Assembly (NCBI GenBank): GCA_031291995.1
Contig: JARLHZ010000010.1
Location: 37,155 to 101,154, forward strand
From: Candidatus Doudnabacteria bacterium
GTDB taxonomy: Bacteria; Patescibacteriota; Doudnabacteria; UBA920
DNA length: 64,000 nucleotides
Reading direction: 5' to 3'
The stretch's first letter is position 1. Each line of letters opens with the position of its first letter. This document shows, in pieces, positions 10,302 through 63,378 of the stretch. A model generated the notes under the pieces. The model was not told the DNA's origin. It made no database searches and saw only the letters and a program-made list of their open reading frames with translations. The position numbers and the translations under genes were made by a program.

Positions 10302-10582
10302 AATGTGTTCTCCTTTTAAAATTTATTCATAATTCTTGTGATTCCCGCGGAGGCAGGAATCATAATTTTTTAGATGCCGGCTCGGGAGCCGGAATGACAC
10401 ATAAGTTAATCCCTTAAAGCCGATAAATCGGCACGCTACATACTTAGATTGCTTCGACATTGTTCACTAATAATTCGATGGCGACTCCTTGCCTGAATTC
10501 CGTCCGGTACGTGGCTCGCGATGACACGAAAGTTTAAATTCCGCGCCAGATCTGCGTCGCTATCCGCGTGCAGATCTGCGGT

Positions 10583-10915: not shown

Positions 10916-11048
10916 ATCTTACGGCAACTTATTTGCAGTATTTGTGAACATTTGTGATTAGTGGATAATTAATTTTTCTTCTTGCTTATTAAGATCCCTC
11001 GACTCGACCTTCGAGTAATATTCTATAAGGTCTCGCTCGGGATGGTTG

Positions 11049-11600: not shown

Positions 11601-11717
11601 ATGATTAATTCGGATTCATTGATTGAATGCGGATCTACTGATGCCTACCAACACACTTCGATCATCAGCATCCGTAGACATCAGTTGATCCGTGTACCAT
11701 CGGTAGATCCGTATTAA

Positions 11718-12473
11718 TTATTTAATCATGGTCAATAATATGACTGCCGCTCCCCCGCCCAACAGCTTGGCAATATACTCCATAAGGGACAAATTCTTTT
11801 CGTACTTCATGCTCTTGGGGCCGATTAAACCGATTACGCCTTTTTTGCCGCCGGGCAGGCTGAGGCCGCTGACTATCATAGAATAATCGGACTTTTTGCT
11901 GAGTTTTAACTCTTTTCCAATAAACGTTTCGGGTTTTTGCGAACCTGAATAATCCAGCATCATTTTTTCCGCGTACTGGTCGATGTTATCAAAAAACTGA
12001 GCAATCTCTTTGGCATCCTCCGCCGGCAGGGCCGGATTATCGAGAATATTGGACAGGCCCGTAGTGGAAGTTTCTTCGGGAAAAAGCGTGAAAGATGCCT
12101 GTTGGGAATGGTCGGACAGTAATTTCGCGATTTTCCTCCCCATTTCCGCGTGGATAATCTGCATCTTCATCAATTCGCGCCTGAGCAAATCCTGCTCCTT
12201 TAATGTCAGCTGTACGCGGTCCATAAGTTCGTTCACAAAAAACCGGAATCCTTTATCGGTTGGCACGCGACCCGCGGACGTATGAGGCTGGGTAATATAA
12301 CCGGTTTTCTCCAATACCTGCATCTCGTTTCGGATTGTAGCCGGGCTGACATCAAAAGTATATTTACCCGCCAAATCCTGACTGGCTACGGGTTGGCCGT
12401 TGTCGCAGTTCTCCTTAACTATGGCCGCAAGAATTTTGGCTTGCCTTTGAGTGATATCGGAATTTTTGTCCAT
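11718..12473 (-). CDS. hrcA: Heat-inducible transcription repressor HrcA
   Basis: N-terminal winged helix (RQAKILAAIVKENCDNGQPVASQDLAGKY) and HrcA C-terminal domain; CIRCE operator immediately upstream. Confidence 0.85.
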   Translation of the reverse strand: MDKNSDITQRQAKILAAIVKENCDNGQPVASQDLAGKYTFDVSPATIRNEMQVLEKTGYITQPHTSAGRVPTDKGFRFFVNELMDRVQLTLKEQDLLRRELMKMQIIHAEMGRKIAKLLSDHSQQASFTLFPEETSTTGLSNILDNPALPAEDAKEIAQFFDNIDQYAEKMMLDYSGSQKPETFIGKELKLSKKSDYSMIVSGLSLPGGKKGVIGLIGPKSMKYEKNLSLMEYIAKLLGGGAAVILLTMIK

Positions 12474-25935: not shown

Positions 25936-26625
25936 ATACTGATTTTTCTTAAGCGCGTCTTCGGCCGCCGACAGTTCCGCTTCCTGTTTGCTCGGACCGG
26001 TTCCCCGCCCGACCTCTGTTTGCCCGACGTAAGCGGCCACCACAAAAACTTTGTTATGGTCCGGACCCGTTTCGCTGACCACGCCGTAAGTCGGCGTCAC
26101 GCCGTTTTTTTCCTGAATGATTTCCTGTAATTTACTCTTCGGATCAACATAACTGCCGCCGGCAATAATACTTGGCAGTTCGACCAAAACTTCGTTGATA
26201 ATAAATTGTTCGGCCGCTTTATAACCGGCATCCAGGTAGACCGCGCCAATGACCGCTTCAATGCAGTTGGCCAAAATTACCTGCCTGGCCCGGCCGGTAT
26301 CCTTGGCCTCGCCGCGGGACATTTGTAAAAAATTTTCAAAGCCCAATTTCTTGGAAATATCCGAGAGCATTTTATAATTCACCAGGGCGCTGCGAAAATT
26401 GGTCAACTCACCCTCGGGATGGGGATAATTTTTATAGAGATATTCGGTCGCCGCCAGCTCCAAAACGGCGTCGCCCAAAAACTCCAGACGCTCGTTATGG
26501 GGCAAACTAAATTTACGGTTCTCATTCAAATAGGACCGGTGGGTAAATGCCGAGACATAAAGGTCAAGATTGTTGACTTTTACTCCCAAAATTTTTTCTA
26601 GCTCCTGTTTATCAAGTGACGACAT
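25933..26625 (-). CDS. rnc: Ribonuclease III
   Basis: RNase III signature ERLEFLGDAVLELAATEYLY plus a C-terminal dsRBD. Confidence 0.93.
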   Translation of the reverse strand: MSSLDKQELEKILGVKVNNLDLYVSAFTHRSYLNENRKFSLPHNERLEFLGDAVLELAATEYLYKNYPHPEGELTNFRSALVNYKMLSDISKKLGFENFLQMSRGEAKDTGRARQVILANCIEAVIGAVYLDAGYKAAEQFIINEVLVELPSIIAGGSYVDPKSKLQEIIQEKNGVTPTYGVVSETGPDHNKVFVVAAYVGQTEVGRGTGPSKQEAELSAAEDALKKNQY

Positions 26626-26725
26626 CGCGATAATGGCGCAAGAATCACGAATCAGGAATTAAGAATGCTTAATTCGTGGTTCTTGGTTCTTGGGAATTAA
26701 ATTATAATACTTTAAAAAAGTCTCT

Positions 26726-26859
26726 GTGCCCCTCGACTACACCACGCTGCGCGTGATTGCGCTCGGGACACTCGACTCGCTCTGCACTTCTTCGTTGGTT
26801 GAGGCCTCCCAAAGGCCGAAACCACGAGCGAGCTTCGGCGTTAGCCGAAGCGAGTCGAG
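26726..26859. repeat. Structured repeat element V, immediately 3' of tRNA-Val (second copy 59769-59888, 3' of tRNA-Ala)
   Basis: About 130 bp alignable with 59769-59888; two internal hairpins differ by compensatory substitutions (cttcggcg-ttag-ccgaag vs ctttgacg-aaag-tcaaag; ggcctcccaaaggcc vs gccctttagggc). Confidence 0.7.
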
Positions 26860-26934
26860 TGGTGGGCGGCGAAGGAATCGGACCTTCGACCCTTTCTACG
26901 TCAAAGAAATGCTCTACCACTGAGCTAGCCGCCC
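26860..26934 (-). tRNA. tRNA-Val (anticodon GAC)
   Basis: Manual cloverleaf: acceptor gggcggc/gccgccc, D-arm gctc-agtggtag-gagc, anticodon loop ttGACgt, encoded CCA. Confidence 0.8.
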
Positions 26935-26945
26935 AAAAACGATAT

Positions 26946-27713
26946 TTAAATTTTATTGCCCGCCGGGGATACTATAAGCGCCGGCAATTCCTGCCTGACG
27001 GTTTCCGGATCTTTTTTTCTATTTATGGTATCTAAAAATAACAATACCACAAAACAATTCAAAATCGCCGAAAGATAAGCAATTAACACTACCACAGCTG
27101 CCAACAATAACCATATTGTAGCAGAATGTCCCGAAACTGAAAACTCCCTGATTAAATAAAGGTCTCCCAATACCCTGTGGACCAAAGCGTAAGATATGCC
27201 GTGCGCTACAATTAAGATGGCGGCCGCGGCTCCCGCAAACGATATTCTTTTATTCCAGGTGTCCATGGCCAGAGACAGGGCCGACGACAAATTTTGATCG
27301 CACAATGCAATATATAACAATGAAAGGCCTGCGGTGGAAGCCGTCACGGCAAAAACCAGCGTATGCAGCGGCCAAAAAGGGAAAATCCAGCGGGCTAAAA
27401 GCACTACAAAGACAGTCATTAAAATCAGGCCTATACCGGAAACGCTTTGGCTTTTAAAATTGTGCCGCGGCTTATCGGGATTGTTAATAAACTTATATGC
27501 CTCTATATCCTGCCACAACCGAATGGTTAATGGAGGCAGTACTGCCATAACCAGAACCAGCCACATTGCAGAAATATGGTTTAACGATTGCGGTCTGACC
27601 AGCTGGCCAACGGCGGAAAAAGCCCCTGCCTGTAAAATCGCCAAAATCCACCAGCGCGGAAACCGGCTGGTGGATAAAATAGACTCGAGTAAAATAGGTT
27701 TCAATTTCGGCAT
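26946..27713 (-). CDS. Hypothetical polytopic membrane protein
   Basis: Six or more TM helices; no motif recognised. Confidence 0.4.
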   Translation of the reverse strand: MPKLKPILLESILSTSRFPRWWILAILQAGAFSAVGQLVRPQSLNHISAMWLVLVMAVLPPLTIRLWQDIEAYKFINNPDKPRHNFKSQSVSGIGLILMTVFVVLLARWIFPFWPLHTLVFAVTASTAGLSLLYIALCDQNLSSALSLAMDTWNKRISFAGAAAAILIVAHGISYALVHRVLGDLYLIREFSVSGHSATIWLLLAAVVVLIAYLSAILNCFVVLLFLDTINRKKDPETVRQELPALIVSPAGNKI

Positions 27714-29623: not shown

Positions 29624-29968
29624 ACTAGCTCCTGTTTAAAAGAATTAAGGTTATTAGATTATACAAATTATTTCGAATTTAATCAATGGCTTAATGGATG
29701 CCCCGCTTTGCTTCCATAAACCGCGCGGCCGATTAAATATCGAGCGTGGAATATTCGCGTTTGCGTTGCGGAGAATGTAAACATAATAGAACTTTCGGGC
29801 ATAAAATTAACTATACCCTAATTGAGCTCTTATTTTTAATTTTGAAAATTAAATTTTGCCCTGTACCAACTCGCTACGACCTAAAAGTCGGCTCGGGTGC
29901 AGGGAATGTACCAGTCGGCTAACTGGGTTCATGGCTGCGCCATGTACCGGAGCAAAGCGACTGGTACA

Positions 29969-30055
29969 TGGTGGGGACGGTGGGAGTTGAACCCACAAGC
30001 CCTTGCGGGCACAAGGTCCTAAGCCTTGCGCGTATGCCAATTCCGCCACGTCCCC
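29969..30055 (-). tRNA. tRNA-Leu (anticodon TAG), type II with a long variable arm
   Basis: Manual fold: acceptor ggggacg/cgtcccc, anticodon stem caagg/ccttg with loop ctTAGga, variable-arm hairpin gccc-gcaa-gggc, T-arm gtggg-ttcaact-cccac, CCA encoded. Confidence 0.8.
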
Positions 30056-30164
30056 AATGAACGATAATAACTCATTAAATCGCTTTAATTGGCAAATCTA
30101 TTTTAGCAGTTTAAGGCTTATGTTGGCAAAACAAAATGCCTCCACCCTAATTGGACAACGGCAA

Positions 30165-30365
30165 AATAAAGGTTCCCCGCCGCAAGCAGCGGGGTATTAC
30201 TGCAAGGAACAGCTGCATCTTCGCGGCAAGCCGCGAGGTATTGAACCTTTCTTTCCGCCAAAGGCGGATCCGCCTCCGGCGGAAGCTCCCTGCCTGGCGG
30301 CAGGCAGGCCTCGGCTCGCTTGTCCTTTGAAAGACAAAGGACAGACTCGCCTACGTCGCGAATAA
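30165..30365. repeat. Structured repeat element L between the pilin-like array and tRNA-Leu (second copy 59608-59760)
   Basis: Shared blocks aataaaggttccccgccgcaagc..ggggtattactgcaa and cctcggctcgct ... ctacgtcgc(g/t)aataaaa; internal hairpins differ (gtcctttgaaagacaaaggac vs cggccataaatggccg); minus-strand end forms a terminator-like GC hairpin plus U-run; carries an extra 28-bp GGATCC palindrome absent from the other copy. Confidence 0.65.
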
Positions 30366-53393: not shown

Positions 53394-53428
53394 CAGTCGC
53401 TCGCAGCGGCGTGGCTCCGCCAGAAAGT

Positions 53429-55448: not shown

Positions 55449-55491
55449 GTAGCGTGCCCATTTATGGGCGTTCCCGGATCGCCGATAAATC
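55449..55491. repeat. Hairpin gtagcgtgcc ... ggcacgctac enclosing gccgataaatcggc; a 22-mer is shared with 10420-10441 upstream of dnaK
   Basis: Exact 22-mer gccgataaatcggcacgctaca occurs at both sites. Confidence 0.65.
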
Positions 55492-55503
55492 GGCACGCTA
55501 CAG

Positions 55504-56815: not shown

Positions 56816-58396
56816 AATGTACTGGTCTCCCCAGTCGTTCTGAAACATTACCACGTCGCCGGGTTTTAAAATATTTTTCAAGCCCGCGTGGGCTTCTAGT
56901 GCGCTGTCAAACCAAATAATTTGCGGTTTTTTGACTCCAACCACCTCCCCCGCTGACGCGGGTACTCCTCCTTGAAAAGGAGGAGAGCTCGACGTTTTTT
57001 CGGACAACCGCGGAGCCTCCCCTCCTGGCAAGGAGGGGTGTCCCGCAAAGCGGGACGGGGAGGTCTGAATTCCTTCTTCAACAAACCCCGTCACGCTATT
57101 TCTTATAAAAATTGCAACGTCCGCCACGCCGGCAAGCTCCCGGCCAATTTGCCGATGAACTTCGGCGGAAGAGTTCCCCATTTCCACCAAACCGGGCGTA
57201 ATATATATTTTCCGCCGGTTTGTGAATCGCGACAAAACCTTTATTGCCTCCCCCACCCCGTCCGGATTGCCGTTGTACGCGTCATCTATAACTAATACCT
57301 CGCCCGCCGATTTAATCGGCTGCAGCCGGTGCTCCACGGGCTTTATATTTGTAATACCCCGTTTCAGCTCATCATCCGACATCCCCAAATTTTTGCCGAT
57401 CTTGACCGCCGCGTCCACATCACCCAGCGCGTACTCTCCCAATAAGTTTACTTCAATTTTACCAAACGATTCCAATTCCGCTTCCCAGCAAAGTTTTTCG
57501 GTATTAAATTTTTGATATTTGATATTTGATATTTGTCCGCCAAAGGCGGATCCGCCTTTGGCGGAATATTTTTCCACCTTGTGGTCCGGCCAAATAAATT
57601 TTTTATAATTATCCATTACTCTTTTATCATCGGCGTTTAACAGCACCACAGCTCCGGGCTCGGAGCCGCTGACAATTTCAAAAATCGTGGACGCCACCGT
57701 TTCCATATTTTTCATTCGTTCCAAATGCGATTCGTTTATGCCGGTTACCACGGCAATATTAGGCTTTGCTATATCGCAGATCTCCCCAATGTCCCCGGCG
57801 TAATGTTCCCCCATTTCTACTATTAATACCTGAGTTTCATCAGTCACCTTATTTAAAATCCACCGCGCGATTCCCACCGGCGTATTTACACTGTCCGGAG
57901 TGGCTAATACCTTAAACCTAATACCTAATACCTTCCCCAGTACTTCCTTCATCGTAGTCTTGCCGTAACTGCCCGCTACCCCGATTATTTTTAAATCAGG
58001 CGGCATATTACCGATTTTAGATTTGGCGCGGATCGCCAATCTTTTTTTTGCCAAACTATCAAACGGTTTAAGCAGCAATAATACAACGCTAAATAACAAA
58101 AAATAAAAAGGCGACAAAATTATCGCCGCGATAACCGCGGCAACAAAAAAATTGCCGATTGAACCGGTTAAAATTACAGTTATTAAGCCGCTAAAAATTA
58201 TGACAAAACCGTGCAAAGCCACCGCCATAAGCATCATTGCCTTGGCTTTTACGCTCCACACCAATTCCTTCCGCTGTTCCCCTCTCGGCCATGGCCCCTT
58301 TTTAAATAACAACTTCCAATACCTGCCCAGCTCATAGTTTTCCAGCTGGAGCAGGTACAATTGATACCTTATAAATTTCGGAACAATAAAATCCAT
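56813..58396 (-). CDS. murF: Mur ligase family UDP-MurNAc-pentapeptide synthetase (MurF-like) with an N-terminal membrane extension and two in-frame repeat-element insertions
   Basis: Mur ligase P-loop GSYGKTT and middle/C-terminal domains; upstream of alr-ddl; about 100-aa N-terminal segment with 2-3 TM helices; inserts at 56944-57070 and 57505-57564. Confidence 0.75.
   Translation of the reverse strand: MDFIVPKFIRYQLYLLQLENYELGRYWKLLFKKGPWPRGEQRKELVWSVKAKAMMLMAVALHGFVIIFSGLITVILTGSIGNFFVAAVIAAIILSPFYFLLFSVVLLLLKPFDSLAKKRLAIRAKSKIGNMPPDLKIIGVAGSYGKTTMKEVLGKVLGIRFKVLATPDSVNTPVGIARWILNKVTDETQVLIVEMGEHYAGDIGEICDIAKPNIAVVTGINESHLERMKNMETVASTIFEIVSGSEPGAVVLLNADDKRVMDNYKKFIWPDHKVEKYSAKGGSAFGGQISNIKYQKFNTEKLCWEAELESFGKIEVNLLGEYALGDVDAAVKIGKNLGMSDDELKRGITNIKPVEHRLQPIKSAGEVLVIDDAYNGNPDGVGEAIKVLSRFTNRRKIYITPGLVEMGNSSAEVHRQIGRELAGVADVAIFIRNSVTGFVEEGIQTSPSRFAGHPSLPGGEAPRLSEKTSSSPPFQGGVPASAGEVVGVKKPQIIWFDSALEAHAGLKNILKPGDVVMFQNDWGDQYI
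56944..57070. repeat. Composite hairpin element (ctcctccttgaaaaggaggag; cctcccctcctggcaaggaggggtg; gtcccgcaaagcgggac) in-frame in murF
   Basis: Encodes about 39 extra aa (SPSRFAGHPSLPGGEAPRLSEKTSSSPPFQGGVPASAGE). Confidence 0.7.
57505..57564. repeat. (tgatatt)x3-4 microsatellite plus the 28-bp palindrome ccgccaaaggcggatccgcctttggcgg, in-frame in murF
   Basis: The same palindrome (one variant) sits inside repeat L at 30255-30282. Confidence 0.7.
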
Positions 58397-59270: not shown

Positions 59271-59344
59271 TGGTCGGGCTGCTGGGAATTGAACCCAGTC
59301 TACACGCACCCGAAGCGTGCGTACGACCGGCATACTCCAGCCCG
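59271..59344 (-). tRNA. tRNA-Pro (anticodon CGG)
   Basis: Acceptor cgggctg/cagcccg, anticodon stem cacgc/gcgtg with loop ttCGGgt, T-arm ctggg-ttcaatt-cccag, CCA encoded. Confidence 0.7.
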
Positions 59345-59607
59345 ATTGTTATTGTGGAAGGATAAAAATAACCCTGATTAGGGCTTTAATCCTTGATTAG
59401 ATTTTCTTTTTTGATTCTTGACCATTTTTTGACTTGGATTTCTCTTTGCCTTGCTTGTATTAAACTAAGGAAAGTTTCTGCGTAGACAATTTCCCCGCCA
59501 CCGTGTTGTTTTGTCCATTGAGCGCCTTTGCCTGAGTTATGCCGAAATTCTCATTGAGGCGGAAAATTTGTGCATCCAGTGTACTAAGTTCCGTCGTTAC
59601 AACTAAA

Positions 59608-59760
59608 AAAATAAAGGTTCCCCGCCGCAAGCAATGGGGTATTACTGCAAAGACATCGCTACAATTGCGCGGCGAGCCGCGCGGTATTGAACCTGTATTA
59701 GCTCCTCGGCTCGCTCGGCCATAAATGGCCGGACTCGCTCTACGTCGCTAATAAAACACA
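59608..59760. repeat. Structured repeat element P (copy of L at 30165-30365, lacking the GGATCC palindrome insert)
   Basis: See L; contiguous with element A. Confidence 0.65.
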
Positions 59761-59768
59761 CAGTTGTT

Positions 59769-59888
59769 TGCCCCTCGACTCGGTTGCGCTCGCTCGGGAC
59801 ACTCGATTCGCTACAAAGCTGGTGGTCGGTCGAAGCCCTTTAGGGCGTAGACCACGAGCGAGCTTTGACGAAAGTCAAAGCGAGTCGA
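59769..59888. repeat. Structured repeat element A (copy of V), immediately 3' of tRNA-Ala(GGC)
   Basis: See V. Confidence 0.7.
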
Positions 59889-59962
59889 GTGGTGGACCTG
59901 GAGGGAATCGAACCCTCGACTAATCCATGCCATGGATCCGTATTACCATTATACTACAGGCC
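59889..59962 (-). tRNA. tRNA-Ala (anticodon GGC)
   Basis: Acceptor gggcctg with G3:U70, D-arm gtat-aatggta-atac, anticodon loop atGGCat, CCA encoded. Confidence 0.8.
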
Positions 59963-60053
59963 CCTGCTCCGCCAAGGCTTCGCAGGGCAAGCCCCGCGTA
60001 ACCTCGACATTTGGTTTGACACTAAGATATATTACTCGATTTCTCTAAAATTA

Positions 60054-60425: not shown

Positions 60426-60491
60426 GACTTTATTATAGCAAATGCTTTTCTTTGGACACAGTGCTTGCACTGCGCAGCTTTAGCGAAGCAG

Positions 60492-60566
60492 TGGTGCCCT
60501 CGGCAGGAATCGAACCTACATCTCATCCTTAGGACGGATTTGCTCTATCCATTGAGCTACGAAGGC
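60492..60566 (-). tRNA. tRNA-Arg (anticodon CCT)
   Basis: Acceptor gccttcg/cgagggc, D-arm gctc-aatggata-gagc, anticodon loop gtCCTaa, T-arm gtagg-ttcgatt-cctgc, CCA encoded. Confidence 0.7.
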
Positions 60567-62026: not shown

Positions 62027-62076
62027 AAATCCGTAGACATCAGTAGATCCGCAGACAATCAGTAGATCCGTGTTAA

Positions 62077-62547
62077 CTACTTATGGTATTCTTTGCCGGC
62101 CAATATTGTACACGCCCGATAAATTTGTTCTTCCAAAACTACCCGGGCCATGTTATGCGGGAAGGTAAGAGGGGACAGGGACAATGAATAATTGCTGTAT
62201 TGGCGCAAAGATTCGTGCAGGCCAATGCCGCTGCCTATTACAAAGACCAACTCCTTGCCCAGGCCGCCAATGCGCTCCAAAAAGACAGAAAAATCTTTGG
62301 AATTCCTTAAACTGCCTTTTTCTTCAAGTAAAATCACTACCGCGTCTTCCGGCAACTGTTTTACAATTTTTTCCGCTTCCTGCTCCTTTATTTTATCCAA
62401 ATCCTGATTTTTCCCGTACCCGATTTCCGGCAACTCAATCACCTTAACTTTAGCAAAAGGGGACAGGCGCTTTAAAAACTCAGCCTCCAAATCCTTGTAA
62501 GCCTTTTCCTTAAATTTTCCGAGTGCAATTATTTTTATCTTAAACAT
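62077..62547 (-). CDS. rlmH: 23S rRNA (pseudouridine1915-N3)-methyltransferase RlmH (SPOUT)
   Basis: MFKIKIIALGK ... VFVIGSGIGL ... SLSPLTFPHNMARVVLEEQIYRA; start at the internal Met. Confidence 0.8.
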   Translation of the reverse strand: MFKIKIIALGKFKEKAYKDLEAEFLKRLSPFAKVKVIELPEIGYGKNQDLDKIKEQEAEKIVKQLPEDAVVILLEEKGSLRNSKDFSVFLERIGGLGKELVFVIGSGIGLHESLRQYSNYSLSLSPLTFPHNMARVVLEEQIYRACTILAGKEYHK

Positions 62548-63304: not shown

Positions 63305-63378
63305 TGGTGGACCTGGGGGGAATCGAACCCCCGCCTCGGCAATGCGAATGCCGCGTAATACCACTTTACTACAGGCCC
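63305..63378 (-). tRNA. tRNA-Ala (anticodon CGC)
   Basis: Acceptor gggcctg with G3:U70, D-arm gtaa-agtggtat-tac, anticodon stem cggca/tgccg with loop ttCGCat, CCA encoded. Confidence 0.8.

Follow-up and report, generated by a model that had tools for sequence, protein, structure and literature searches.

Why should two tRNA genes of one bacterial genome be followed, from the first base after their CCA, by the same folded sequence? The question is raised by a 64,000-nt stretch of a Candidatus Doudnabacteria contig (JARLHZ010000010.1; this whole stretch is called the window), in which the trailers of tRNA-Val-GAC and tRNA-Ala-GGC align block for block, as a sequence-only reading of the DNA had noticed. 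Judged from sequence comparison, these trailers are probably copies of a small noncoding, non-autonomous, mobile-like repeat, sited right after the tRNA CCA in Patescibacteria/candidate phyla radiation (CPR) and oriented like the tRNA. The elements make up a superfamily, apparently an undescribed set, whose families (F1, F2, F3, and others) share a single architecture.

Two folded trailers in the window

Both tRNA genes map to the minus strand, so the intervals singled out earlier are minus-strand 3' trailers. ARAGORN finds the CCA encoded in these two genes and in tRNA-Leu-TAG (29969-30055), tRNA-Arg-CCT (60492-60566), tRNA-Ala-CGC (63305-63378), and tRNA-Pro-CGG (59271-59344), all on the minus strand. 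The two trailers can be aligned from base 1 after CCA to ...GTCGAGGGGCA (RNA: ...GUCGAGGGGCA) with 81% mean column identity, and on the RNA strand their blocks follow in the order X, hairpin 1 (HP1), Y, hairpin 2 (HP2), a variable linker, X', hairpin M, and A. X is CTCGACTCGCT (RNA CUCGACUCGCU), Y is AGCTCGCTCGTGG (RNA AGCUCGCUCGUGG), and X' is AGCGA(G/A)TCGAGTG, then TCCCGAGCG (RNA X' AGCGAGUCGAGUG); a further segment, X'' (GAGTCGAGGGGCA), sits on the 3' strand of M. The consensus of hairpin M in the two trailers is GUCCC-GAGCG...GUCGA-GGGGC, then A, and M of the Val element reads GUCCC...GGGGCA, enclosing an inner hairpin CACGC/GCGUG. With at most two mismatches allowed, the window has 5 occurrences of AGCGAGTCGAGTG where 0.41 would be expected, a count that 0 of 100 shuffles attained. 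The features are as follows, with P1 denoting the helix that joins X to X'.

26860-26934, minus strand: tRNA-Val-GAC, whose C75-A76 make the first P1 pairs with the UG at the X' end
26727-26859, minus strand: F1 element of subfamily a, directly 3' of tRNA-Val-GAC
26848-26859 (X), 26832-26851 (HP1), 26825-26831 (Y), and 26796-26824 (HP2), minus strand: parts of the Val element in RNA order
26769-26782 (X', ending in UG) and 26727-26769 (M hairpin), minus strand: remaining parts of the Val element
59890-59963, minus strand: tRNA-Ala-GGC, host gene of the second F1 copy
59769-59889, minus strand: F1 element of subfamily b, directly 3' of tRNA-Ala-GGC
59878-59889 (X), 59862-59881 (HP1), 59855-59861 (Y), and 59823-59854 (HP2), minus strand: parts of the Ala element
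59800-59812 (X') and 59769-59800 (M), minus strand: remaining parts of the Ala element

Is the fold under selection? Both window trailers fold better than their shuffles (z = -3.1 and -3.5), and the full pre-tRNA (z = -4.0) folds into the cloverleaf, two free bases, P1, and M. Between the two trailers, HP1 carries two double changes (GCTTCGGC/GCCGAAGC in one, GCTTTGAC/GTCAAAGC in the other), and HP2 shows compensatory changes as well (GGCC/GGCC versus GCCC/GGGC; TGGTT/AACCA versus TGGTC/GACC). A wider alignment of 17 F1 copies, gathered with a search pattern in which X and Y were held constant and placed in an alignment that was itself fitted to the model, pairs in 95.7% of its cells and has double changes in 19 of 31 pairs; this level was reached by 0 of 500 shuffles, and slid controls pair at 24 to 44%. 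G-U pairs in the F1 copies are confined to the tRNA-sense strand. Support independent of that pattern-biased and model-fitted alignment comes from X and X', which have changed together from family to family; joint changes of X and X' are also seen in L108 (UUCGGCUUC/GAAGCCGAA) and in L056-outer (L numbers denote records other than the window). The closing stem of M covaries too, with UCCC/GGGG, CCUU/AAGG, UCCU/AGGA, CCCU/AGGG, and UUUC/GAAA among its forms. The hairpin changes and the covariation over 17 copies are compensatory changes as they characterize structured noncoding RNA. On this comparative evidence, the element is a structured RNA or DNA under strand-specific selection, that of the tRNA-sense strand. 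The claims of the sequence-only reading that two hairpins keep their pairing through double substitutions and that selection acts on RNA structure are thereby borne out. Its further statement that this is not simple duplication is no more than half true: the two window copies would be spread copies of a repeat family and no locally coevolving pair. The trailer of tRNA-Ala-CGC shares only the short proximal part, as had been noted, namely, the 4 nt CTCG of X.

An independent assembly, L112, is 100% identical across 9.3 kb that include the Val element, which is hence no assembly artifact. Annotation of L112 has a 72-amino-acid (aa) "gene" called across tRNA and element, an example of how elements abutting CCA can be a source of false calls of open reading frames (ORFs). 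For tRNA-Pro-CGG, the ARAGORN call has no Rfam tRNA hit at the gathering score, which may be due to an atypical D-arm or to filter loss; its L056 ortholog is very similar.

Do the trailers belong to a known class? At gathering thresholds of Rfam 15, tRNAs are the sole matches in the window, and permissive cmscan runs (E of ≤10 for 26650-26950; E of ≤5 for 59340-59900) returned chance-level scores of 12 to 20 bits against cutoffs of 37 to 66. Membership in any Rfam 15 family, including rtT, hatchet, hepatitis delta virus-like (HDV-like), twister, hammerhead, T-box, and tRNA-like RNAs, is ruled out by this lack of matches. A tRNA-like or degenerate tRNA origin is ruled out by the absence of any ARAGORN call for tRNA or transfer-messenger RNA and of any RF00005 signal over the elements. 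A scan for intrinsic terminators found none in 26550-27050 or at the Ala element, where that reading is likewise dismissed; the sequence 3' of M is CA and then A-rich. Protein coding is ruled out, as the ORFs of 65 to 72 aa run through the tRNA, indels are not multiples of three, and substitutions compensate pairs. HDV-like ribozymes cleave at their own 5' end, and a nested pseudoknot of that type can be drawn from X, Y, X', and Y'; it was rejected, by inspection only, since the +1 base is C and not part of a G-U wobble, no P4 lies between X' and Y', and Rfam gives no match. An integrase att site or duplicated tRNA 3' end is ruled out because the repeated part is the trailer and not the tRNA, true nested or duplicated tRNA pieces having been seen in L056 and L079 only.

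One architecture at the CCA junction

Where else does the F1 element occur, and how is it placed? One genome per GTDB species was scanned with the pattern X-N(8-30)-Y, from which CCA was left out. The scan yielded 15 true F1 copies, about 60 chance matches from high-GC genomes being set aside, and 14 of the 15 begin at the base right after the CCA of a recognized tRNA. These host tRNAs include Ile-GAT, Ser-TGA (three times), Met, Val-CAC (twice), Tyr, Cys, Arg-GCG, Glu, and Ala-GGC, in records labeled Saccharibacteria, Komeilibacteria, Doudnabacteria, or Patescibacteria. In all, F1 adjoins the CCA of 12 or more tRNA species besides the two of the window. The 15th copy (L084:2331-2445), the sole one without a recognized tRNA, follows ...UUUCCA with no tRNA detectable; it has the X-HP1-Y half, an M-like hairpin (UCCU-GAGCUUGUCGA-AGGA) at the HP2 position, no X', and an intrinsic terminator at its end. 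When 13 of the copies were made into a covariance model, it retrieved these copies along with more divergent ones (L056-outer, L017, and L108), and in the window it finds the two known F1 copies and nothing further. Many further covarying copies thus exist, and the sequence-only reading, which would have fallen had there been none, stands on this point.

The elements are noncoding and about 95 to 140 nt long. They share the insertion habit of the IS200/IS605 type, with one orientation, a position always after CCA, HP1 on the left, and M on the right. Several loci have the element between the tRNA and its terminator, so the element should be cotranscribed with the tRNA; separate canonical terminators lie 3' of it in L056, L015, L079, and L111.

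The same plan recurs with other sequences. F2 lies 3' of tRNA-Leu-TAG in the window, and its homologs follow tRNA-Val in L095 and tRNA-Ala-GGC in L111; its proximal complement, GGUACAUGG (29940-29948), is able to pair with the whole CCA. F3 (X, CUGCUUCGCC; X', GCGAAGCAGUG; M, CCCUAC-GAAGC...GCGAAG-UAGGGC) adjoins tRNA-Val and tRNA-Leu in the closest relatives, with full copies in L096, L097, and L095. Additional families follow tRNA-Ser-GCT (L079), tRNA-Pro (L100 and L111), and tRNA-Ala-CGC (L105). The window holds two full F1 copies, one F2 copy, one F3 fragment, and one solitary M, with full elements after tRNAs only.

29857-29968, minus strand: F2 element directly 3' of tRNA-Leu-TAG, with the F1 plan in another sequence
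29958-29968 (X, UGUACCAGUCG), 29906-29917 (X', CGACUGGUACAU), and 29857-29905 (M, CCCUG...CAGGGCA), minus strand: parts of the F2 element
60461-60491, minus strand: F3 fragment of 31 nt, 5' part only (CUGCUUCGCUAAAGCUGCGCAGUGCAAGCAC), directly 3' of tRNA-Arg-CCT
10995-11042, minus strand: M-type hairpin standing alone (UCCC-GAGCGAG...GAGUCGA-GGGA) on the transcribed strand, 6 nt past the grpE stop

The common architecture was analyzed in 22 instances from at least five sequence families by seeking a helix between CCA plus 12 nt and the downstream region. The best helix, P1, has 9 to 15 bp, whereas shuffles give about 7 to 8 bp. Its start lies at C75/A76 in 21 of the 22, and in L085, L017, and L079-SerGCT it reaches C74 or beyond. 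X' ends in UG in 21 of the 22 (in L044, UG stands one base past the best helix), and the C-rich strand of M begins 0 to 2 nt after X'. The common core is a G/C-closed M hairpin with a purine-rich internal loop, directly 3' of X'. The G of the terminal UG has two alternative partners, C75 or the C that follows the G-run of M (a C in 19 of 22). Because this G can be shared and M adjoins X', P1 and M could stack into a helix of about 20 to 22 bp, and in such a stack the element 3' end, A76, and the element 5' end would stand consecutively opposite a guide, X'-UG-(U)CCC.

Could the trailer instead be a conformational switch? The sequence-only reading had pointed to alternative pairings, and these exist: X pairs with X' in the minimum-free-energy fold of the Val trailer, and X pairs with X'' and Y with Y' in that of the Ala trailer. 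In a switch, M would be closed while X paired with X' and open while X paired with X'' and Y with Y', and the choice would regulate read-through, tRNA release, or a downstream gene. Both folds are near optimal in the window copies; part of F1 and also F2 and F3 have an X'' with complementarity to C74-C75-(A76)-X, always with an A76-G mismatch; and one compensatory change in L056-outer backs Y:Y' on inspection. The X:X'' pairing is kept in some F1 copies (e.g., the window Val copy and L049) and in F2 and F3 but lost in L005, L006, L015, and L048, where, as in L095-Val, complementarity is no better than in shuffles. In L108, X' has followed X in a joint change and X'' has stayed unchanged. Neither state forms a terminator, there is no conserved unpaired core resembling a ligand pocket, and no downstream gene is consistent. 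A switch is hence very improbable. P1 with M is the conserved state, universal in the analyzed copies, and the alternative pairing is facultative at best. An equally good reading of X'' is that of a DNA element's subterminal inverted repeat: X (CTCGACT) and X'' (AGTCGAG) form a 7-nt inverted repeat, whose right side is subterminal, 4 to 5 nt inside ...GGGGC, and which is degraded or absent in L005, L006, L015, L048, and L108. At the flanks, CA (from CCA) precedes X, and the G-run is followed by CA in 12 of 22, CT in 7, and something else in 3, a pattern that is not consistent.

Hairpin M has a life of its own. Its solitary copy 3' of grpE means that the module also occurs apart from tRNAs, and there it resembles a repetitive extragenic palindromic (REP) element in a 3' untranslated region (UTR). 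Bacteroidales, Pirellulales, and Parcubacteria have interspersed copies of a unit related to M, GUCAUyyC-GAGCGAGC...GCGAGUCGAG-rrAUC; in view of these units and the grpE copy, M-type hairpins behave as interspersed repeats themselves. In L046:1-1300 (minus strand; Bacteroidales), the M-related repeat stands several times within a tilS-like reading frame, in the manner of Rickettsia palindromic elements. The M-related repeat has no Rfam match, and L019 has an antisense copy just upstream of 16S rRNA. This M-related repeat, written GUCAUUUCGAGCGAGCGAAGCGAGUCGAGAAAUC and often standing after partial tandem units, was seen in L046, L007, L025, L076, L040, L061, L074, L068, and L019.

The genome has several other short-repeat families. 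One of them, called Q, is about 150 to 200 nt long and lies downstream of the Ala-GGC element (59608-59754, minus strand) and upstream of tRNA-Leu (30163-30365, minus strand). It starts UUAUU(A/C)GCGACGUAG(A)GCGAGUC-hairpin-AGCGAGCCGAGG and goes on AGGUUCAAUACC-CGCGGCU(C/U)GCCGCG ... UUGCAGUAAUACCCC..GCGGCGGGGAACCUUUAUUUU to a terminator-like hairpin at its end; the core is about 85% identical between the two copies and without Rfam hit, and Q may be a small-RNA gene or a repeat family. Shorter ones are an intergenic repeat, AUCCGUAGACAUCAGU(U/A)GAUCCG... (11670-11724 and 62029-62083), a palindromic repeat, UCCGCCAAAGGCGGAUCCGCC..GGCGGAA (30254-30284 and 57536-57566; L044 and L079 too), and GCCGAUAAAUCGGCACGCUACA (10410-10440 and 55472-55502). 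The trailer of tRNA-Ser-CGA (53394-53425, plus strand) begins CAGUCGCUCGCAGCGG and has CAGUCGCU in common with the X region of F2 (CCAGUCGCUUUGCUCC); it may be a decayed element remnant.

Turnover at orthologous tRNA genes

Is the trailer a lasting feature of its tRNA? Syntenic loci of tRNA-Val-GAC, in the order ftsH, a 255-aa gene, tRNA-Val-GAC, rnc, and smc, were found through homologs of RNase III, whose percentages head the lines below.

Window, RNase III 100%: F1 after tRNA-Val-GAC, F2 after tRNA-Leu-TAG
L096/L097, RNase III 94%: F3 after tRNA-Val-GAC, F3 after tRNA-Leu-TAG
L091/L092, RNase III 88%: none after tRNA-Val-GAC, tRNA-Leu-TAG not seen
L098/L099, RNase III 85%: none after tRNA-Val-GAC, tRNA-Leu-TAG not seen
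L093/L094, RNase III 83%: none after tRNA-Val-GAC; a tandem-duplicated 190-nt unit after tRNA-Leu-TAG, with ...CCA before each
L095, RNase III 82%: F2 after tRNA-Val-GAC, F3 after tRNA-Leu-TAG

Three of the six distinct tRNA-Val-GAC orthologs are element free. Between the window (F1) and L096 (F3), the flank past M can still be aligned (..CCAAGA(A/G)CCAAGAA..GAAUUAAG..CUUAAUUCCUGAUUC..), which puts the limits of the replaced segment at CCA and at the M end. A sample unbiased as to trailers was drawn by scanning metagenome contigs for the anticodon arm of tRNA-Ala-GGC. Of its 12 orthologs, 8 have a terminator right after CCA, 2 have other sequence, 1 (L108) has an F1-like element with new X/X', and 1 (L111) has F2; with the window and L056 added, 4 sites are filled (3 by F1 or F1-like elements and 1 by F2) and 10 are empty (n = 14). 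The junctions read CCA, element, AAAG-terminator in filled L056 and CCA, AAAA-terminator in empty L107. About one-third of the tRNAs at loci sampled without bias carry an element. Both tRNA-Ala-GGC and tRNA-Val-GAC thus have orthologous sites that are occupied in some records and vacant in others, with sharp boundaries, as is the mark of a mobile element. With another family or none after the tRNA-Val, tRNA-Leu, and tRNA-Ala-GGC orthologs of close relatives, the trailer is no conserved feature of these tRNAs.

Similarity across lineages points the same way. When the columns that the search pattern had constrained were left aside, identity of the window Val copy was 84% to a Saccharibacteria copy (L005) and 63% to the window Ala copy, which in turn is 80% identical to another Saccharibacteria copy (L006) and 75% to its own ortholog in L056. 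The window copies are therefore two subfamilies common to phylum-level lineages, closer to L005 and L006 than to each other. Together with the turnover, this cross-lineage likeness is easier to reconcile with an element that has spread than with vertical descent, and the elements, if so, would be a marker of horizontal exchange between CPR phyla.

Several points weigh against a mobile-like repeat. We infer mobility only from how the elements are distributed, and sequence conservation between phyla could partly reflect strong functional constraint and not transfer. F1 conservation is overstated because the search pattern fixes X and Y, and taxon labels were taken from record titles. No insertion polymorphism within the species was seen, the sole same-species contig being identical. 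The 64-kb window holds no transposase, integrase, reverse transcriptase, or HUH protein, and an autonomous version of the element was not found. A UG/UGG guide of 2 to 3 nt is by itself too short to account for insertion at tRNA ends alone.

Does the element serve its host? As a beneficial cis module of the tRNA precursor, it would act as a processing signal, as 3' protection or stabilization, or as a terminator substitute, recombination would exchange it among tRNA genes, P1-M would be recognized by a nuclease of the host, for example, RNase III, and selection would keep P1-M for better tRNA maturation or for shielding of downstream transcripts. The conserved sense-strand structure, the position within the transcription unit upstream of terminators, the junction that always lies in a helix, and the roughly two helical turns of P1 and M suit such a module, as do the solitary M right after grpE, placed like a 3'-UTR stabilizer, and the Val copy just upstream of rnc with no terminator between. 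Yet 10 of the 14 Ala-GGC orthologs and 3 of the 6 distinct Val-GAC orthologs function without an element, unrelated sequence families occupy the same site, no more than about one-third of the tRNAs at loci sampled without bias have one, and the linkage to rnc is tRNA synteny and not the element's own. We consider a host-serving module unlikely. Autoregulation of RNase III, a narrower proposal, is ruled out: tRNA-Val lies upstream of rnc in element-free relatives as well, so the rnc linkage belongs to the tRNA and not to the element.

An independent small-RNA gene, with the upstream tRNA as the signal for processing its 5' end and the released RNA acting in trans, would follow the models of tRNA-linked small nucleolar RNAs and viral tRNA-microRNA units. 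Exact abutment on CCA would define the 5' end, the fold is compact and stable, and there are multiple copies per genome; against this, the unrelated families share only their architecture with no common trans-acting sequence evident, occurrence among close relatives is sporadic, and the first bases are buried in P1. We give this reading very little credence. Phage or plasmid origin is ruled out: blastn against 50,697 phage records and 72,556 plasmid records gave no match, and the X...Y pattern matched no viral contig. The 44 window ORFs examined are of housekeeping or unknown function (e.g., dnaK/dnaJ/grpE, ftsH, smc, recA, ftsK, and mur genes).

Other peculiarities were seen at tRNA genes in these records. 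The trailer of tRNA-Leu-TAG in L093 (2039-2424) has a unit of about 190 nt (CGGGUCAACCG...GGGAACCA) in tandem duplicate, copy 1 ending in ACCA with copy 2 directly after it, as if the CCA-like end of the unit were a new insertion site. tRNA-Leu-TAG itself has two very different alleles, one with the acceptor stem GGGGACG (window and L095) and one with GGGCGAG (L096 and L093); their spread is out of step with RNase III relatedness and suggests whole-gene replacement at the locus. Directly upstream of tRNA-Leu-TAG, and slightly overlapping it, L096 (4117-4755) and L097 (3052-3690) have a 212-aa ORF with a faint LAGLIDADG_3 match, in place of which the window has the noncoding Q repeat. Nested tRNAs occur in L056:1300-1610 (minus strand), where about 130 nt, made up of a complete tRNA-Ala-CGC between the arms of an inverted repeat (UCACCCCGUCACUAAA/UUUAGUGACGGGG), interrupt the anticodon loop of an outer tRNA-Ala-like gene, and in L079:4810-5000 (minus strand), where an outer tRNA is broken in the D-loop by CCCCGUUAACU/AGUUAACGGGG around a complete tRNA-Arg-CCG. 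These may be tRNA-carrying insertions or an intron-like/split-tRNA arrangement; the Ala-CGC ortholog in the window is intact.

Possible mechanisms and likeness to known systems

How might a mobile-like element of this kind use its fold? Insertion is precise, with the phosphodiester after A76 as the left boundary and the end of M (...GGGGC, usually then A) as the right one. P1 is built from C75-A76 and the first 9 to 13 trailer bases (X) with the UG-ending X', covarying variable hairpins lying between, and M follows directly, its closing G-C pair using the same G that is able to pair with C75. Transcribed within the tRNA precursor, the element may stack P1 on M, clamp the tRNA/element junction, and place its 3' end beside A76 and its own 5' end. 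The fold might then serve either of two roles, which seem about equally plausible and are compatible with each other. A structure-specific endonuclease (candidates are RNase III, RNase P, and RNase Z) could cut exactly after A76, making the insertion harmless to tRNA maturation, or the fold could be an internal guide that recognizes the CA of the tRNA 3' end and aligns the element ends in excision and insertion. The mobilizing enzyme would be encoded elsewhere.

A bolder form of this idea makes the RNA itself mobile, an RNA-guided, retro- or viroid-like bacterial element specific for tRNA ends and aimed at their free CCA-3'OH. The ends of the released RNA (5'-CUCGAC... and ...GGGGC(A)-3') would lie side by side on X'-UG-UCCC, a juxtaposition that would favor circularization or strand transfer; the UG(G) guide would capture the CA end of any tRNA as a mimic of the element's own ...CA end and join it to the element, and a reverse transcriptase or recombination step would fix the fusion in a tRNA gene. 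It would explain why every copy starts right after A76 whatever the tRNA identity. We regard a mobile RNA as decidedly unlikely.

If the preferred reading of a mobile-like repeat is right, CPR tRNA genes host tiny structured elements inserted with single-nucleotide precision at the CCA end, a target choice of which we found no description for bacterial miniature repeats in the searchable literature. Searches of that literature with sequence strings and topics found no published description of the elements either; a 2026 paper on tRNA introns in Patescibacteria does not mention the trailers (PMC13011429). On that reading, nature offers a test case here for the maturation of CCA-encoding tRNA precursors in reduced genomes when a helix locks the 3' junction, and a guide that pairs with the end of the tRNA as well as with those of the element suggests a joining mechanism directed by base pairing.

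Which known systems come closest? REP, BIME, and REPIN sequences, mobilized by RAYTs, which are Y1 transposases like those of IS200/IS605, share with our elements a short, noncoding, multicopy nature, imperfect palindromic hairpins, transcription in the 3' regions of genes, and solitary units, and F1 has two M-related units in inverted arrangement, as a REPIN does. Unlike the elements, which are tied to A76 of tRNAs, REPs are bound to no defined nucleotide of a host gene; the junction-spanning P1 has no REP counterpart, no GTAG-type 5' tetranucleotide was identified, and the window has no RAYT. IS200/IS605 and their miniatures (single-strand "peel and paste") lack classical terminal inverted repeats and a consistent target duplication, as our elements may do too; like the elements, they insert right behind a short specific sequence, on its 3' side and in a single orientation, and have subterminal hairpins whose neighboring bases pair with the cleavage sites. 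The analog of that guide would be the UG 5' of M, which can pair with the flanking tRNA CA or the element's terminal CA. The elements differ in that the window has no TnpA, the Watson-Crick guide extends 9 to 13 bp into the element, and a CA/CCA target alone would not confine insertion to tRNA ends.

Correia/NEMIS (Neisseria), RPE (Rickettsia), ERIC, BOX, and RUP sequences are similar in their 100 to 150 nt, RNA folding, cotranscription, and presence or absence at orthologous sites, and Correia hairpins are RNase III substrates. These miniature inverted-repeat transposable elements, in contrast, are bounded by genuine terminal inverted repeats and a target duplication (TA in the case of Correia), and they go into many intergenic or genic sites and not into one fixed point of tRNA genes. 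The rtT repeats of Escherichia coli tyrT (RF00391) and the 3'ETS-leuZ sponge are, like our elements, structured or functional RNAs in the 3' external spacer of a tRNA that are released by processing, but they are single-locus and lineage specific, make up no multifamily set, and do not start next to CCA with a junction-clamping helix. Finally, the P1/P10 guides of group I introns and the EBS-IBS (exon-binding and intron-binding sequence) guides of group II introns resemble the elements in that an internal segment pairs without interruption across a junction, here with the tRNA CA and the element start, whereas the elements are far too small for a catalytic core, have no Rfam intron match, and see nothing spliced out at the junction deduced from the DNA.

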